A stretch of 61,809 nt of DNA, the filler included. It is 9 parts of 9 records of this genome, joined end to end, with 100 filler letters (N's around TTAATTAATTAA, not from the genome) between each part and the next. Parts side by side here need not be neighbours in the genome. Positions count along the whole stretch, not along the records: positions 56,612 to 61,809 come from SRR31156797_38727; 8 more parts are not named here. One strand, written 5' to 3'. Below are positions 53,918-60,489 of this stretch, in pieces (position 1 is the stretch's first letter; the number at the start of each line of letters is the position of its first letter). The notes below the pieces were generated by a model. That model was not told the DNA's origin, did no database searches, and was given only the letters and a program-made list of their open reading frames with translations. The translations under genes were made by a program, and so were the position numbers.

Positions 53918-54084
53918 TTTGTTGACTGTAAAAATCGGTTAATATAGTTCATGGCCTCCCAGTTAAATTTCCGGCCTGTTCATGATTGTATTTTATTTCT
54001 CGCCGCCGATACATTGAGTGAGAGTGGTATAGGATAACCTCTAAATATCTGTAATAACGATTAAAATATAGCATGAAAAAAACC

Positions 54085-54150
54085 TTGACAAGTCGGATAA
54101 AGTTGCATATTGTATTTTGCATTCAATATTTTAAATTCAATTGCATATAC
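54085..54150 (+). promoter_or_regulatory. Sigma-70 promoter with overlapping TG(C/T)AT repeats (probable GntR operator)
   Basis: TTGACA(54085)-N17-TATTGT(54108); 7-bp periodic TGCATAT/TGTATTT/TGCATTC and a further TTGCATAT. Confidence 0.6.
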
Positions 54151-54189
54151 CTGAGCCTGAAACCAGACTTTCAACACAAGGACGGAAAA

Positions 54190-54870
54190 ATGATTAATCT
54201 CGGTGCAACTCACGAAAATCTGGACCAAAAAGTTTACTCGATGATCAAACAAATGATCATCGACCGTAAGTTCCTTCCAGGAGATAAAATTTCGCAGGAA
54301 AAACTGGCTCTCGACCTGGGCGTATCAAGAACCCCTGTTGTCAGCGCCTTGAAATATCTGGAAAAGGAAAAACTTGTCGAAGCAAAACCCCGCCGGGGCT
54401 TCTATGTGCGCCTGTTTACCATGCAGGAAATGGTCAGCATTTTCGAACTTCGGGAAGTGCTGGAAGGATTGGCCGCCCGCAGGGCCGCCGCCAATATTAC
54501 CAAAGATCAGATCGGGCAATTGGAAAACTTCTTCCACCAGTTCGATCCGGAGGCAGGGATCAAGGATCTGAAGGCTTATGCAAGGGAAGACAGACGTTTC
54601 CATAGTTTTGTCACTGAAGTCGGCGCCAAGGAATTCCTCAAAAGCATTTTACAGAATTACAACATAATCAGCTTTTCTTACCAGGTGGTGTCTTCCGAAG
54701 GATTGGTCAGGGCGCCCGAAGAGACCATCCACGAGCACCAGGCCATAATAAAGGCCATCTGTTCCAAGGATAGTGAAAACGCGGAAATGCTAATGCGCGC
54801 CCACTTCAAACAATCAATAGCCCGATTGAAGGCGGAAATCGCGGAACAGCAAGCCGCTGTGAAGGATTAG
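54190..54870 (+). CDS. GntR family (FCD subfamily) regulator
   Basis: wHTH LALDLGVSRTPV..PRRGFYV; FCD ELREVLEG, DRRFH, EHQAII; start ATG 54190. Confidence 0.93.
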   Translation: MINLGATHENLDQKVYSMIKQMIIDRKFLPGDKISQEKLALDLGVSRTPVVSALKYLEKEKLVEAKPRRGFYVRLFTMQEMVSIFELREVLEGLAARRAAANITKDQIGQLENFFHQFDPEAGIKDLKAYAREDRRFHSFVTEVGAKEFLKSILQNYNIISFSYQVVSSEGLVRAPEETIHEHQAIIKAICSKDSENAEMLMRAHFKQSIARLKAEIAEQQAAVKD

Positions 54871-55175
54871 TGACGATTTACCGCCGGCTGGGGCGAGCGG
54901 ACTTGCAGGTTTCGGCATTGGCCCTGGGTACAATGAAATTAGACGGTCCGATCCGGTTAATTTAATGCATAACGTCCGCCGGCAAAGGCGGCGAATGAAT
55001 TCATATTAAAGGAGGTTGTCTGGAGATAAACAATGATTGGAATCACACGGCCGGCCGATATTGTCGGGCCCGGCGCCTCCTTTCCGGCATGACTCAGGCG
55101 TGAGGCGCGCAATTGAAACCGGCCGGCTGATTATTTGGGGAAACAGGGTTCTAATACATGGAGAGGAGGAAAAAG

Positions 55176-56177
55176 ATGAAGAAAAGTCTTATTTTATGTC
55201 TTGTATTGCTTCTGGCCATGGGAGGCGTCGTTTATGCGAAGAGCTACCCGAAACGTAACATCACGGTGGCTGTTGTGTGGGGCGCCGGAGGTGGAACAGA
55301 CACCTGCAACCGGATCATTCATGCCGAAATGGCCAAGGTGCTTGGCGTCAATGTCAATGTCATTAATAAAACTGGCGGCGTGGCCGGCTCGGTGGGTATG
55401 AACTACGCGTACAGCCAGCCTCATGACGGGTACACTCTGTGCGGATTGTCCGAATCCAACGTCACGGCCGGGGTCCAGGGCGGCTGGGACAAAAAATTCG
55501 ATGTCTGGGATGTGTTTATCGTAGGCGGTTCCCCGGATATCATCTCCGTAACTCCGGATACGCCCTACAAAAGCCTCAAGGACCTGATCGAAGCCGCCAA
55601 GGCCAAACCCAAGAGCATCAAGGCCGCGGCCAGCGGCGCCGGTTCGATTCATCACCTTAATCTTTTGGCTATTGAAAACGGAACCGGGGCCAAGTTTAAT
55701 TTCATCCCGTACAAGGGCTCCGCTCCCAGCCAGAATGCAGCCATGACCGGAGAAGTTTCCGTAGTGGTCACTTCCCTGGCCGAACAACAGCAACTCCTGC
55801 GCGGCGGCAAACTGAGGCCGTTGGCCATGCTGATCCCGACAGCGTTCGAAGTCGAAGGGATAGGCTCCATTCCGTCGTCCTTTGATGCCTATCCCGGCCT
55901 GTCCAAGTATCTGCCCATTTCTCAGGCTATTGGATTCGCGGTTCCGGCGGATGCACCCAAGGAAGCCAAGGACGTTTTGGTGGATGCCTTCAAAAAGGCT
56001 ATCGCCACGGACAAGGTGAAAACATGGGCCAAGGAAAATTATTACCTGCTTTCCGGCGCCACCGGTGACGAGTCCAGAAAGATTTTCAATGCGCTCGAAT
56101 CGAATTTTGCCTGGACTCTATGGGAACTTGGCGCGGCCACCGTGGAACCGTCCAAGCTCGGCATACCTAAACAGTAA
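55176..56177 (+). CDS. Tripartite tricarboxylate transporter substrate-binding protein (TctC/Bug family)
   Basis: Signal peptide, YPKRNI..WGAGGGTD, PHDGYTL, IPYKG; RBS AGGAGG. Confidence 0.9.
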   Translation: MKKSLILCLVLLLAMGGVVYAKSYPKRNITVAVVWGAGGGTDTCNRIIHAEMAKVLGVNVNVINKTGGVAGSVGMNYAYSQPHDGYTLCGLSESNVTAGVQGGWDKKFDVWDVFIVGGSPDIISVTPDTPYKSLKDLIEAAKAKPKSIKAAASGAGSIHHLNLLAIENGTGAKFNFIPYKGSAPSQNAAMTGEVSVVVTSLAEQQQLLRGGKLRPLAMLIPTAFEVEGIGSIPSSFDAYPGLSKYLPISQAIGFAVPADAPKEAKDVLVDAFKKAIATDKVKTWAKENYYLLSGATGDESRKIFNALESNFAWTLWELGAATVEPSKLGIPKQ

Positions 56178-56276
56178 CCTTTAAGCCCCGGCGGCGGATG
56201 CGTCAGTTCGCGTCCGTCCGCCCGGTCTGCCAATGCGGCAAGAACTAATGATTCAATTGCTCGAGGTTCATCAGTC

Positions 56277-56511
56277 ATGATGGAAAAAGAAAAACTCCGC
56301 AAAGCGGATTTATTTTCCGGAGCCTTCATTTTTATTTTCGGCCTGTGGGTTATAAGCCAGGGCCTGCAAATGCCCATGAAGGATTCCTGGGGCGGGGTGC
56401 AAAACGTCTGGTATGTATCACCGGCCCTGTTCCCCTTGTTTGTCGGCGCCATGATTTCTTTTCTGGGCGCCATGCTCGTCCGCATCGCCATCAAGGAAAC
56501 CGGGCGGGTAG
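56277..56511 (+). CDS. TctB-like small membrane subunit (3' end cut)
   Basis: Two TM helices with SPALFP motif directly after tctC-like gene. Confidence 0.65.
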
Positions 56512-56611
56512 NNNNNNNNNNNNNNNNNNNNNNNNNNNNNNNNNNNNNNNNNNNNTTAATTAATTAANNNNNNNNNNNNNNNNNNNNNNNNNNNNNNNNN
56601 NNNNNNNNNNN
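56512..56611. other. Artificial contig linker
   Basis: 44 N + TTAATTAATTAA + 44 N. Confidence 0.99.
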
Positions 56612-56757: not shown

Positions 56758-57591
56758 TCAGGCCTTTAAATTTCTGGCGTAATGGAACATATATTGCTGT
56801 GCGATGCCGGCGTAAGGGCTGAAAACAACCGGGTCAAAGGCTTTCCCGTAGTTTTCTGCAACCGCCTTTTTAATCCAGGTGTCAACCGGGAACGCATCAA
56901 GCATATGAAGGCCGAAAAGCACGGCACACCGGGCGACCTTGTCGCCCACACCGTTCAGTGATTTGAGCGCGGCAATGGCCTCTTCGGGTGCTCCCGTAGC
57001 CAGCGTCTCCAGATCAAGACTTCCACTGGCGACGGCGCGGGCCGCGTCAAGGATATACGGCGCTCTGTAGCCGCAGCGGAGCGGCTCGAGGTCCTTCTCT
57101 GTCAGTCCAGCCGTTTTTTCGGCCGACGGAAAGGTGTAATATGTATGGTCCTGAAAATCAATCGGCTCGCCGTACAACGTGCAAAACCGCTCAACAATCT
57201 GCTTGATGCGCGGGATATTGTTGCACTGGGACACGATAAAGGTGCACAGCGCCTCCCACTTGTCCTGCCGAAGTATCCGGATGCCCCATCCGAAGTCCGC
57301 GCACCGAGCCATATAGTCGTCAATACAGACCCTGTGCCGTACGGCTTCGTAGTCTAGATCAAGGTCGAAATAAGCGCGCCATACCGCATCAAAGTCTTCG
57401 GTTGTGCCAGTGATAAAAACGCTGTCGCCATCCCTGCGGACGCGCGCGGCTTTGCCCATCGCCACACCGATATACGCGCCGTCTTCGTCGCGGTTCCAGC
57501 GGAAGCATTGGCCGCATTCAAACGTCTGCTCCAGGTCAAGGCCTGTGAGCCCCGTTATTTCCGTTTCCTGTCCTTTTTGAAAATAATCCAT
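56758..57591 (-). CDS. 8-oxoguanine DNA glycosylase (Ogg/HhH-GPD family)
   Basis: TFECGQCFRW, SQCNNIPRI, GYRA, HhH GVGDKVA, FPVDTW; start MDYFQ at 57591. Confidence 0.9.
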   Translation of the reverse strand: MDYFQKGQETEITGLTGLDLEQTFECGQCFRWNRDEDGAYIGVAMGKAARVRRDGDSVFITGTTEDFDAVWRAYFDLDLDYEAVRHRVCIDDYMARCADFGWGIRILRQDKWEALCTFIVSQCNNIPRIKQIVERFCTLYGEPIDFQDHTYYTFPSAEKTAGLTEKDLEPLRCGYRAPYILDAARAVASGSLDLETLATGAPEEAIAALKSLNGVGDKVARCAVLFGLHMLDAFPVDTWIKKAVAENYGKAFDPVVFSPYAGIAQQYMFHYARNLKA

Positions 57592-57637: not shown

Positions 57638-58351
57638 TTATCCGTAGACGAAGCCGCGCTTAGGATCATTAAATTCCTCCAGCCGCAGCCGATAGGCTTC
57701 CATCGCCGCCTCTTCAAAGACCAGCGGCCTGTCGCTTATGCCCAGAAGCTCCAGAAGATATTTGGTAAAGAGCGGATTGAGTATGAGGAGCGGGCCTAAA
57801 ACATACGTGGCCATAAAGTTGTTTTTTCGGATGCCCTCGGGCTTTACGTCCGGATTTCGGCCGACGCCGCGCACTGTCTCAAAAAGCGCGTCCGCACCGT
57901 CGCCGTATACGTGTGTAAACTGGCTTTTAAAGCCAACGATATCTATATCGCCAAATTTCCCGAGATAAAGCGAATTGTGACGGTGCATCATCCGGCGTTT
58001 TGCCGTGAAATCAAACAGCCCAAGCATTTCGGTGGCCGTGCCATCCTCATCCTCAATGGACTTTATAAATATCTCCAGCGCGTTCCCTGTAATGAGGAAC
58101 GTGGTCCCGCCGTCGATGAGCTCTTCAATGCGCGCCTTATGCGGGCGCAGCGCATCCGCTACGAGAAGCTGTGCCTGCTCGGTCATGGAGCACATAAACA
58201 CCAGGTCCACGTCACCGTTTAAAAACGCCGGCGGCGTTTTCAGCGGTGTCCTGACGATCTCCGCTTCCGGGACGGTACGATGCAGATACTCGATGTTCAT
58301 CAAGTCGCCAAAGAGATAGCAAACCTCGGGATATAAAATTTCAATCTTCAT
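57638..58351 (-). CDS. GatD/CobQ-like glutamine amidotransferase-fold protein lacking catalytic Cys and His
   Basis: LYPE..LFGD..N, LGLFDF, IVGF, GVGRN..EG, ATY.LGPLL align with GatD; CGGYQ replaced by GNALE, HGP by LGP. Confidence 0.85.
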   Translation of the reverse strand: MKIEILYPEVCYLFGDLMNIEYLHRTVPEAEIVRTPLKTPPAFLNGDVDLVFMCSMTEQAQLLVADALRPHKARIEELIDGGTTFLITGNALEIFIKSIEDEDGTATEMLGLFDFTAKRRMMHRHNSLYLGKFGDIDIVGFKSQFTHVYGDGADALFETVRGVGRNPDVKPEGIRKNNFMATYVLGPLLILNPLFTKYLLELLGISDRPLVFEEAAMEAYRLRLEEFNDPKRGFVYG

Positions 58352-59724
58352 CGGGCGGCCGCCTCCTCCGCCAGTTTTTTCGTCCGGCCCTGGACCTTAT
58401 AGACGAGCTTCATCGCGTCGGTGCCGTAAAACAGGCAGACGCTGGAGCCCTTTTTATATTCAAGCAGATCCGGCGCATCCAGCTCGTGCAGCGTGCAGCG
58501 CAGCCGGTCCTCCGGGACGCCTGCCATCAACAATCGCAGATAATAGTCCCGCGCGCGCGGGCCTGTGGCAACGATGCGCGTGATGTTGTCTCTATTTAAA
58601 AACTCAAAGTCGCAGTCATACAGCCACGTTACGTTTTCAGACCAGTGCTGGTCGTCGGAGAGGTTATTCATCATCATGATAATCTCTTTATCGCCTGGAA
58701 GGCCAGAGATGTAATCAAAGGCGCGGGAGCAGGCCAGAGCGTTGCGGTCCTTTGACATCTGCATAACAACCTTGACGTCCCCGGCTTCCTGGATATTAAA
58801 GCGTGTTTCCACGATCTTTGTCTTCTCAAACCCGGCTTTAATCTGATCATGCGCCAGGCCAAACTCGCGCAGCGCCGCGACGACCGTCACCATATTGTAG
58901 ATGTTGAAAATACTGTCGCTCAGCAGCCGGTACTGCATATTTTCATCCCCGTTGGCCACCGTCATCGTCATTGAAGCGATATCGATGTCTTTGCCAAGGT
59001 AATCACTCTCGGGCGATTTAAAGCCACAGTCCCGGCAGTGGGCCTTGCCGATATGATGATAGCGCCTGTAATCGTAGACGAGCTCGCCCCGGCATTCCGG
59101 ACAGATCTGCATATCGTTAATTAGATTAATGCAGTCGATGACGTCTGATGCCATCTTGTCAAGCCCGAAATAAACGCGTGGATTGTCGGGGCTCACCCCG
59201 GCGGATATTAGATCGTCGGCGTTTAAAACAAGCTTTGTCGTCTTCGGCACCGCGCCCTCAATGATGCCCGCTATGTACTGCGGGTGCGCATTGCGCATAA
59301 TTGAGTCGCGAAACAGATTGGTGATAACAAGCAGGTCCGGCTTCACATAGGGATATATGCGTTTGGAGGACCGCTCGTCCACCTCAAAAACAGCGGTATC
59401 GTATTTCGATTTTCCGAAAATACCGCAGCCCATGAGAAGGCTGGTAGCGATACCGGCCGCCACGTTGGACCCCAACTGATTGTTAAGTACACGGTAGCCG
59501 TTCTGAGTCAGCACATCGTTTAACAGGTTTGAAACGGTGGTTTTACCGTTTGTGCCGGTGACGGCAATAATTCTTTTCGGCTTGCCGATATGCGCGAGAA
59601 AATCGGGGCACAGCTTGAGCGCTACATACCCCGGAAAATACGTGGCGTTACGCCGCAAAAGCCTCAGCGCCAGCCGTCCGCATTTGGCAATCCATAATGT
59701 CAGAAGAAATCGGATTTTTCCCAT
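58348..59724 (-). CDS. MurT-like Mur ligase with zinc finger and DUF1727-like C-terminus
   Basis: P-loop TGTNGKTT, EVDE, TNLFRD, LNADD, CPEC..CRDC, WLYDCDFE; ATGA-coupled to the GatD-like gene. Confidence 0.9.
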   Translation of the reverse strand: MGKIRFLLTLWIAKCGRLALRLLRRNATYFPGYVALKLCPDFLAHIGKPKRIIAVTGTNGKTTVSNLLNDVLTQNGYRVLNNQLGSNVAAGIATSLLMGCGIFGKSKYDTAVFEVDERSSKRIYPYVKPDLLVITNLFRDSIMRNAHPQYIAGIIEGAVPKTTKLVLNADDLISAGVSPDNPRVYFGLDKMASDVIDCINLINDMQICPECRGELVYDYRRYHHIGKAHCRDCGFKSPESDYLGKDIDIASMTMTVANGDENMQYRLLSDSIFNIYNMVTVVAALREFGLAHDQIKAGFEKTKIVETRFNIQEAGDVKVVMQMSKDRNALACSRAFDYISGLPGDKEIIMMMNNLSDDQHWSENVTWLYDCDFEFLNRDNITRIVATGPRARDYYLRLLMAGVPEDRLRCTLHELDAPDLLEYKKGSSVCLFYGTDAMKLVYKVQGRTKKLAEEAAAR

Positions 59725-59779: not shown

Positions 59780-60415
59780 TTATTTAAGTCTAGCCACACA
59801 GCGGTGGATTGAGACGCCCTGCTCATAAAATTTGAGCTCGTAGTCCGTCATAACACCGTTGGGCCCGTCCTTATGAAGGTCACGCGTCATATCCGACAGC
59901 TCATAACCGCACTGCGTCAGCTGCGCCAGCGAAAAGTCAAACAGCAGGGCGTTGTCCGTTTTGATATGGATTTCCCCACCAGGCTTTAAAATAGACCTGT
60001 AATTTTTCAAAAAGCTCTCATACGTCAGCCGGCGCTTGGCGTGCCCCTTTTTGGGCCACGGGTCACTGAAATTCAAATAAATACGCCCGACCTCACCGGG
60101 GCCGAACAACTCGGGCAGACGCACGGCGTCCGCGTCTATATAACGGACATTCTTAAGGCTGGCGTCCTGGGTGCGCTCCATCGCGATAACCATCGCTTCC
60201 GGCACGCGCTCAAGGCCGATAAAAAGCGTGTCCGGCTCGGCGCACGCTGTTTCCGTTATAAAACGGCCCTTGCCGCAGCCGATTTCCAGACGCAGCTCGT
60301 TATAGCCCGGGAAATCTTCCAGCCACCGTCCCCTGCAATCCGCCGGTGTGGCAACTAATACATCGGCGCAACGTTCAAAGCGCTGCGGTAAATTCGGTTT
60401 TTTTCTCATCCTCAT
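59780..60415 (-). CDS. trmB: tRNA (guanine-N7)-methyltransferase
   Basis: LEIGCGKG, NFSDPWPKKGHAKRRL, KTDN, TDYE.KF. Confidence 0.95.
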   Translation of the reverse strand: MRMRKKPNLPQRFERCADVLVATPADCRGRWLEDFPGYNELRLEIGCGKGRFITETACAEPDTLFIGLERVPEAMVIAMERTQDASLKNVRYIDADAVRLPELFGPGEVGRIYLNFSDPWPKKGHAKRRLTYESFLKNYRSILKPGGEIHIKTDNALLFDFSLAQLTQCGYELSDMTRDLHKDGPNGVMTDYELKFYEQGVSIHRCVARLK

Positions 60416-60465: not shown

Positions 60466-60489
60466 AAAAAGCCCCGCAAAGGCGGGGCT
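60466..60489 (-). terminator. Rho-independent terminator of the MFS gene
   Basis: Minus strand AGCCCCGC-CTTT-GCGGGGCT followed by a T-run. Confidence 0.8.

Follow-up and report, generated by a model that had tools for sequence, protein, structure and literature searches.

Conserved MurT/GatD-like gene pairs of anaerobic Clostridia with a glutaminase-dead GatD subunit: a possible ammonia-dependent lipid II isoglutaminyl synthase

MurT/GatD, the glutamine-hydrolysing enzyme that forms isoglutamine on lipid II, has been described from Staphylococcus aureus, Streptococcus pneumoniae and Streptococcus pyogenes, with structures available as PDB entries 6gs2, 6h5e, 7q8e, 6fqb and 9sq9 (PMC3266927, PMC6113224, PMC6085368). 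According to the accounts given in two of these reports, the Gram-positives studied so far cross-link their walls efficiently only when D-iso-glutamate is amidated, and the enzyme is regarded as a drug target (PMC3266927, PMC6085368). By mutagenesis, Cys94, His189 and Arg128 of S. aureus GatD have each been shown to be essential for glutaminase activity (PMC5871853, PMC6113224), and the glycines of the oxyanion hole are defined as Gly60 and Gly95 (PMC5871853). In published descriptions of canonical MurT, the DNAAD-GRD loop supplies Asp349, the third member of the glutaminase triad, and a second loop, FRDQLDRYGE, is the proposed former of the ammonia channel. The murTgatD genes are said to be widespread in Clostridiales, and the available text of the same article does not mention an inactive GatD (PMC6085368). 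Here, we describe a murT-like and gatD-like gene pair at positions 57638-59724 of a 61,809-nucleotide stretch of clostridial DNA (the whole stretch is called the window below), in which the GatD homologue has lost the glutaminase site, and we show that pairs of this kind form a large, conserved and undescribed glutaminase-dead MurT/GatD family in anaerobic Clostridia.

Both genes lie on the minus strand. The murT-like gene (58348..59724) encodes a protein of 458 amino acids that combines the middle domain of Mur ligases with MurT_C and carries an inserted Cys4 ribbon, and the gatD-like gene (57638..58351) encodes one of 237 amino acids with a GatD-type class I glutamine amidotransferase fold. 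Neither open reading frame (ORF) contains an internal stop. Four bases, ATGA (58348..58351, minus strand, read directly from the sequence), belong to both the stop codon of murT-like and the start codon of gatD-like, an arrangement that points to translational coupling, and a Shine-Dalgarno-like run, GGAGGAGG, lies ~12 bases 5' of this overlap.

The GatD-like subunit appears to have kept its fold and lost its active site. Its AlphaFold2 model has a mean predicted local distance difference test score (pLDDT) of 97.5, and the nine best Foldseek matches to that model were all GatD chains, with template modelling (TM) scores of 0.73-0.84; at the top stood 5n9m_A and the S. aureus GatD chain 6gs2_A, with a TM score of 0.84 and 25-26% identity. 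The model thus predicts a GatD fold that includes the extra C-terminal helix. In the alignment with 6gs2_A (E 6e-13), Gly89 is found at the position of Cys94 and Leu185 at that of His189, and alignment with 12 canonical Clostridia GatD proteins showed GGGQD replaced by CSMTE, ICGGYQ by TGNALE, GFENH by GFKSQ, and HG by LG. The oxyanion positions are occupied by Ser55-Met56 and by Asn90 (at Gly95) in place of glycines. These and adjacent residues are bulkier than their canonical counterparts (Gly-Gly to x-Met, Gly95 to Asn, Gly96 to Ala), which, from the sequence, suggests a smaller pocket. Arg124, the probable equivalent of Arg128, is kept in 140 of the 151 rows of the family alignment described below; the two residues are aligned by MAFFT and lie one residue apart in the HMMER alignment, and Arg124 touches MurT in the predicted complex. 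The protein scores just under the cut-off of Pfam GATase_3 (26.6 bits against 27) and far from those of the NCBIfam models (48.8 and 30.4 bits, with cut-offs of 450 and 400). Judged by these replacements, the GatD homologue could not be a Cys-His glutaminase and, with the glutaminase residues lost, the wall precursor would be modified with ammonia or with another amine that is taken up directly.

The MurT-like subunit, by comparison, looks like an active ligase. It matches Pfam MurT_C at 80.2 bits (cut-off 25) and Mur_ligase_M at 37.6 bits, and its best solved relatives are the S. aureus MurT chains 7q8e_A and 6gs2_B (E 2e-55). It is without the UDP-binding N-terminal domain, its residue 9 aligning to residue 6 of S. 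aureus MurT. The P-loop GTNGKTT, E114-x-D116-E117, W367-x-Y-D-x-D-F-E and the ribbon cysteines 208, 211, 230 and 233 are all retained and are invariant or nearly so among 77 aligned relatives, in which K61, T62, N87, E114, D116, E117, N136, N274, N277, R308, K325 and N328 are invariant. In S. pneumoniae MurT, residues K59, N85, E110, D112/E113, N132, N270/N273, R304 and K321/N322 are described as serving ATP, Mg and the acceptor carboxylate (PMC6085368, PMC6113224), and the equivalents of the MurT residues known from mutagenesis or structure to matter are all invariant in the 77 relatives. The acceptor side is likewise retained, with the G-x-N loop carrying N87, D116/E117, and a conserved N-terminal helix with K14. 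The residues for ATP-dependent activation of a carboxylate are in place.

Three loops of the MurT-like protein set it apart from canonical MurT, as seen when 19 partners of dead GatD were compared with 11 canonical MurT proteins, conservation being counted in 121 rows. Loop 138-148 changes from FRDQLDRYGE to FRDSIMRNAHP; loop 325-338, which reads KDRNALACSRAFDY in the window, changes from K-NP to KDxNALAxSRxFDY and brings a new Arg; and loop 357-364, DDQHWSEN, changes from DNAAD-G-D to D..HWSEN. Each version is conserved within its own group. The KNP equivalent of the window's protein reads KDRN, and its DNAAD-GRD loop reads NNLSDDQHWSEN, three residues longer. D357 occurs in at least 90% of rows; the alignments disagree on which Asp matches D349, and the partner His is absent. 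W361, S362, E363 and N364 are nearly invariant and lie at the predicted interface. His360 shows intermediate conservation (at least 50%, under 80%) across the 121 rows and falls outside the 90% columns of the 77-sequence alignment. Scores against the NCBIfam MurT equivalog models (206 and 194 bits) do not reach the cut-off of 800. Much of this had been read from the letters alone in a first-pass annotation of the window, and it held up throughout: the coupled, full-length genes and their ATGA overlap in the ORFs and the sequence; the replacement of the glutaminase motifs by Gly89, Leu185, CSM and GFKSQ in two alignments; the retained P-loop, EVDE, zinc finger and WxYDxDFE of MurT in the alignment and the 77 relatives; and the differing C-terminal motifs of MurT (KDRN; NNLSDDQHWSEN) in comparison with S. 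aureus and the 11 canonical proteins.

Several lines of evidence suggest that the two proteins may work together. A predicted complex scored 0.91, with the best control at 0.01, agreement of at least 95% of contacts between runs and a pLDDT of at least 92 for each partner; of 78 solved complexes, 51 attained the mark used, as did 2 of 108 mismatched pairs, and the prediction may simply reflect the MurT/GatD complexes already solved, so that it speaks for likeness, not binding. The predicted interface involves residues 142-150, 201-214, 360-366, 369-370 and 389-400 of MurT and residues 9-25, 36-38, 57-59, 124, 141-145, 185-187 and 212-237 of GatD, and in this model the new MurT loops would lie in contact with the edge of what was once the glutaminase site. 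Independent hints of pairing come from the ATGA coupling and from four natural single-chain MurT::GatD fusions of the dead type (representatives P0128, P0150, P0175 and P0227, 698-758 amino acids), whose MurT part is 38-45% identical to the window's MurT-like protein. The order murT-like then gatD-like, one directly after the other, was found in all 18 loci compared, namely 17 fetched loci and the window.

The loss of the glutaminase site is ancient and conserved. A word-index search retrieved 1848 relatives, and an exhaustive search of representatives clustered at 50% identity returned 1096 clusters at E <=1e-3 and 181 at E <=1e-30. The motif TGNAxE occurs in at least 116 of 121 rows comprising the window and the best 120 of the 1848 relatives (58-94% identical). 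In a broader alignment of 151 rows, made up of the window and the best 150 cluster representatives, the nucleophile column holds Gly in 133 rows, Ser in 13 and Cys in one (Gly or Ser in 146 of 151), and the column of the catalytic His holds Leu in 82, Ile in 36, Val in 11 and His in one. The polar residues E58, Q61, N90, R124, E172, N178, T182, N192 and R223 are conserved in these rows, with N90 present in 138, G89 in 133 and Thr88 in 131, and core members often have the Lys-Ser of GFKSQ. The 151-row alignment has no conserved Cys or His at any position, the commonest Cys column reaching 69 rows. Cys54, considered as a replacement nucleophile, was rejected, its position being Gly in 135 of 151 rows.

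Both genes are under purifying selection. Comparison of the window with six orthologues gave ratios of non-synonymous to synonymous substitution rates (dN/dS) of 0.04-0.13 for the murT-like and 0.04-0.14 for the gatD-like gene, and the sole pair with unsaturated dS (L001) gave 0.064 and 0.116, respectively. In a quick GatD tree of 70 rows (the 12 canonical proteins, the window and every second of 114 full-length representatives), dead and canonical GatD fell on opposite sides of one branch with a Shimodaira-Hasegawa-like approximate likelihood ratio test (SH-aLRT) value of 100. Their MurT partners split likewise (18 against 11 rows, SH-aLRT 100), in a tree from which one partial row was dropped and for which the program warns of long branches. 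The substitutions are not unique to this contig, the same motifs recurring across the family; homologues with the signature form a separate clade from the 12 canonical proteins, under purifying selection, as the first-pass annotation had proposed to check. Its statement that neither gene shows decay agrees with the intact frames, the low dN/dS and the replacement motifs in 146 of 151 rows.

More distant dead-type GatD proteins vary in their motifs. Two of them (L052 and L054, in genomes G124 and G094) carry TGN[AS]xE and [LI]GP and retain GFENHQG, and others (L044-L051) carry TGN[AS]xE and [LI]GP with GF[VIT]NK where the window has GFKSQ; loss of the four glutaminase motifs was therefore not a single event. 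A further dead-type GatD of 288 amino acids (L053, G006:C31:8080-11520) carries ~50 inserted residues between family positions 135 and 134-236, seen as a match of the family profile to the protein in two pieces.

The closest relatives of the window are Sporobacter and Papillibacter genomes (Oscillospiraceae), and five related genomes stood in for the window's own. The cultured relative Sporobacter termitidis DSM 10068 has a counterpart of the pair at 76% identity. Each of the five holds a single MurT_C match, beside a dead GatD. In a sample of 300 Clostridia genomes, 196 had a match to the canonical GatD model, and the dead-family profile found 20 loci, all 20 without Cys and His at the catalytic positions; a second, canonical-scoring GatD was found in none of these 20 dead-type genomes. 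The NCBIfam isoglutsynth_GatD cut-off of 400 bits was reached in none of the 300 (best 306 bits), the window's GatD-like protein scoring 30-49 bits on the NCBIfam models and canonical Clostridia GatD 200-306 bits, and this equivalog model will leave the GatD proteins of the whole class unnamed. A survey of 61 genomes from the GTDB family of the closest related genome (G001) found exactly one GatD homologue in 32 and none in 29. The 32 comprised 12 core dead-type proteins and four divergent dead variants (the dead type thus making up half, 16 of 32), 15 canonical proteins, and one that keeps Cys and has Tyr for His. The last of these (L061, G325:C75:23550-24550) also retains GGGQE and FENH and could represent either an intermediate or a form impaired in another way. 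Dead and canonical types substitute for one another in a patchwork that is seen even inside a single family, and this mutual exclusion fits both filling the same slot.

What reaction, then, would such a pair catalyze? Our best explanation, put forward tentatively and at a little less than even confidence, is that it is an ammonia-dependent lipid II isoglutaminyl synthase in which the pseudo-GatD is an obligatory structural subunit. When S. aureus MurT was combined with GatD C94G, glutamine-dependent amidation was reported to be lost and NH3-dependent amidation of lipid II to be kept at pH 8.5, and MurT alone was reported to be inactive with any donor (PMC3266927). GatD is therefore needed structurally even with ammonia supplied, and since C94G keeps the ammonia route, a natural Cys-to-Gly GatD with an intact MurT would most simply be ammonia-dependent. 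We infer that lipid II is the acceptor, that ammonia is the nucleophile, and that the pseudo-GatD has a scaffold or entry role. In such a mechanism, the acyl-phosphate would be attacked by free cytoplasmic ammonia, not by ammonia released from glutamine, and the GatD-like subunit would be retained as a pseudo-glutaminase because MurT is inactive without GatD. The pseudo-GatD would act as a clamp on MurT, gripping its C-terminal domain, its ribbon and loop 138-148, and the remodelled, partly filled former glutamine pocket would form a co-evolved interface with the HWSEN loop of MurT, which may be the site of ammonium entry.

The first-pass annotation had proposed that the pair ligates an intact amine (an amino acid, a diamine or free ammonium), with the dead GatD as scaffold or substrate-binding subunit. 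Its premises stand, in that the GatD homologue cannot be a Cys-His glutaminase and MurT keeps the activation residues; evidence for an amine other than ammonia is indirect and comes from other lineages of the family, with their ATP-grasp neighbours and one tandem duplication. By analogy with S. aureus C94G, free ammonium would be the simplest entry on that list and, if it is the substrate, the product would be ordinary isoglutamine and not a new modification.

A number of observations weigh against lipid II amidation that depends on ammonia. The wild-type S. aureus enzyme is reported not to use NH4Cl at pH 7.5 (PMC3266927), and an ammonia-dependent enzyme would need adaptation to work at neutral cytoplasmic pH. 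T88-G89-N90-A91-x-E/D93, K-S-Q and E58 stay conserved in members as distant as 36% identity, the MurT loops facing the former site (HWSEN, MRNAHP) are conserved and family-specific, and a former active site that has not drifted would also fit a new ligand-binding site. That the pair holds the only MurT is drawn from the five related genomes and not from the window's own. In addition, an ATP-grasp gene of the Pfam family ATPgrasp_ST lies directly upstream of the pair in five of the 17 fetched loci (L012, L014, L015, L016 and L017), and ATPgrasp_ST occurs in 12 of 20 dead-type genomes as against 35 of 281 other Clostridia genomes (Fisher p 3e-6, ignoring relatedness). Finally, in one locus from an Anaerovoracaceae metagenome-assembled genome (MAG; L014:1520-6735), two divergent dead-type pairs, with GatD-like proteins 40% and MurT-like proteins 32% identical, flank ATPgrasp_ST in one operon, with three ligases in a row, and such tandem dead pairs are hardly explained by plain amidation.

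The alternative that survives best, possible but in our view doubtful, is that the pair couples, in place of ammonia, some other amine in intact form (an amino acid, a diamino acid or a polyamine) to the D-Glu alpha-carboxyl of lipid II, with the remodelled ex-glutaminase pocket at the MurT/GatD interface as the predicted amine-binding site. The polar residues conserved in that pocket (N90, E/D93, E58, Q61, K142-S143-Q144 and R124) would suit such a ligand, and the new conserved MurT motifs (HWSEN, and KDxNALAxSRxFDY with its new Arg) are predicted to face the pocket or the cleft; the bulkier oxyanion residues argue instead for a smaller pocket. ATPgrasp_ST, upstream in five loci and enriched in dead-type genomes, is the one additional ligase that recurs with the family, is located 1.5-1.6 kb upstream of gatD-like in two genomes (G006 and G222; 1.6 kb for L053 in G006), and together with the two dead pairs around it in L014 would look like stepwise assembly of a side chain. 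Against this, ATPgrasp_ST was found in none of the five Sporobacter-like genomes closest to the window, nothing making or racemising an amine was found in the window's neighbourhood by ORFs and a Pfam scan, and the pocket motifs are identical in members with and without the ATP-grasp, which may therefore act at another position. Substitutions of the D-Glu carboxyl do occur in nature; polyamine-substituted walls in Negativicutes and B-type walls in Eubacterium are on record, and the literature as seen names no gene for them. B-type walls occur in Eubacterium limosum and Acetobacterium, and polyamine-linked walls in Selenomonas and Veillonella. Nor, to our knowledge, has any gene been published for a B-type cross-bridge or for polyamine linkage to the D-Glu alpha-carboxyl. 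It is conceivable, at similarly modest confidence, that the pocket binds an intact diamino acid, glycine or polyamine and that the family is the gene set for substituting this carboxyl. No carrier organism is known to have an unusual wall. In the chemotype table of a 2024 review, as far as its entries go, the listed Ruminococcaceae genera and Oscillibacter have dashes and Faecalibacterium has only meso-diaminopimelic acid (meso-DAP), and the papers listed by a search on Sporobacter termitidis held no relevant wall data.

A third reading, which we consider improbable, is that the carboxylate modified by the MurT-like enzyme belongs to another acceptor site, for example the epsilon-carboxyl of meso-DAP, another stem position, a polymer of teichoic or capsular type, or some lipid-linked intermediate that is not lipid II. 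The remodelled C-terminal loops of the DNAAD region are proposed stem-peptide contacts, Pfam describes ATPgrasp_ST as associated with sugar transfer, and a cardiolipin-synthase-like gene with a phospholipase D (PLD) domain lies upstream in L012 by Pfam scan, with ORFs upstream in L014 and L016 that are cardiolipin-synthase-like by likeness of the N-terminus only. The low MurT equivalog scores (206 and 194 bits against 800) point the same way and are weak evidence, because even canonical Clostridia GatD miss the NCBIfam cut-off. The retained acceptor-side residues (the N87 loop, D116/E117 and the K14 helix) and the strict mutual exclusion with canonical MurT/GatD, which fits one shared slot, speak for the usual acceptor.

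Still less likely is that glutamine continues to be used, either through a non-canonical nucleophile (for example Thr88 beside the former elbow, Ser143/Lys142, or, in the HWSEN loop of MurT, Ser362) or through a separate glutaminase that supplies ammonia in trans. Thr88 in 131 of 151 rows, the common Lys-Ser of GFKSQ, the nearly invariant W361, S362, E363 and N364 of MurT at the predicted interface, and Arg124 in 140 of 151 rows as the probable counterpart of the glutamine-sequestering R128 could all be read in its favour, but the apex of the elbow is Gly, both oxyanion backbone positions are altered, K142 and S143 are missing in distant dead-type members (GF[VI]NK or GFENH), and His360 is only moderately conserved. 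Moreover, we know of no class I amidotransferase that works by such a non-canonical nucleophile. That gatD-like is a decaying remnant and the pair non-functional, as the loss of all four glutaminase motifs might suggest, is scarcely credible and already contradicted by the conservation data: frames are intact, dN/dS is 0.04-0.14 in six comparisons per gene, 146 of 151 rows carry the replacement motifs, the structure is modelled with high confidence, and the pair is the sole copy in related genomes.

The local context of the pair is housekeeping. A trmB-like tRNA (guanine-N7) methyltransferase gene (59780..60415, minus strand; Pfam Methyltransf_4, 134.7 bits) lies 55 bases upstream of murT-like on the same strand, and a gene for an 8-oxoguanine DNA glycosylase with OGG_N and HhH-GPD domains (56758..57591, minus strand; OGG_N 86.3 bits; probable ATG at 57591) lies ~45 bases downstream of gatD-like, also on the same strand; both frames are open, and ogg is functionally unrelated to the pair. 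A terminator-like hairpin of eight pairs, seven of them G-C, followed by a T run (60470..60489, minus strand; found by a consensus scan only) sits between a major facilitator superfamily (MFS) transporter gene and trmB, and is the likely upstream boundary of a unit trmB - murT-like - gatD-like - ogg, of which trmB would probably be the first gene. The arrangement with trmB upstream and ogg downstream is common to 10 loci, the window included. Elsewhere in the window, a GntR-type regulator ORF followed by ORFs resembling tctC and tctB of the tripartite tricarboxylate transporter (54073-56567, plus strand) was recognized by translation only. Positions 5406-56611 contain sixteen 44-base N runs, arranged as eight pairs with members 12 bases apart and read as masked stretches; the pair nearest to the genes described here is at 56512-56555 and 56568-56611, and one run interrupts the ORF at 56277-56567, which is tctB-like by translation only.

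In public databases, members of this family go by such names as "lipid II isoglutaminyl synthase (glutamine-hydrolysing)", "MurT ligase domain-containing", "DUF1727", "CobQ-like glutamine amidotransferase" and "hypothetical protein", and a cluster look-up of 10 representatives returned only names from uncultured MAGs. From the residues present, the first of these names could not be correct in its present form for dead-type proteins. A search that left subscription journals and supplements outside turned up no paper describing a dead GatD, nor one naming a gene that substitutes the D-Glu alpha-carboxyl; the supplementary alignments of PMC6085368 and PMC6113224 may hold such sequences without comment. 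Either outcome would be informative, giving a natural ammonia-dependent amidotransferase with a dead glutaminase subunit or a new wall substituent in abundant anaerobes. If an intact amine is ligated, a wall modification not yet described would be present in a considerable fraction of the Clostridia of gut and digesters. How host NOD receptors read muropeptides is determined by the group on D-Glu, and through this reading the chemistry of the pair would bear on the gut peptidoglycan pool.

Compared with canonical MurT/GatD, the pair has the same two-gene operon order, MurT architecture and GatD fold, and a heterodimer predicted through the same regions. It differs in that different but conserved residues stand in GatD for Cys, His, the oxyanion glycines and ENH, that the DNAAD-GRD, KNP and 135-143 loops of MurT are replaced by family-specific conserved motifs, and that GatD identity is ~25%. 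Bacillus subtilis is not known to possess MurT/GatD. An intriguing parallel is carbamoyl-phosphate synthetase I of ureotelic vertebrates, in which a glutaminase-type domain has lost its catalytic Cys, free ammonia is used, and the dead domain is kept as a structural and regulatory part; that enzyme, however, has an unrelated synthetase domain in a single polypeptide and has no part in the cell wall. Cooperation of an ATP-grasp ligase with a Mur-type ligase, or the building of a side chain by one, is familiar from Ddl with MurF and from the D-aspartate ligase of Enterococcus faecium, and this analogy would fit the operons of other lineages that combine ATPgrasp_ST with MurT-like and GatD-like genes, not the window or the five closest genomes. 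The archaeal MurT-like proteins of pseudomurein producers are described as relatives of MurT that work without an active GatD glutaminase, but those archaea are reported to be without any GatD homologue (PMC11915815), whereas here one is always present and conserved. Finally, S. aureus GatD C94G carries the same Cys-to-Gly change and, as reported, is glutamine-dead and NH3-active with a MurT that still needs GatD (PMC3266927). That protein is a laboratory point mutant, ammonia-active only at pH 8.5, and the natural family carries many co-evolved changes in both subunits; by analogy, the C94G complex would nonetheless be the best functional model for the natural pair.

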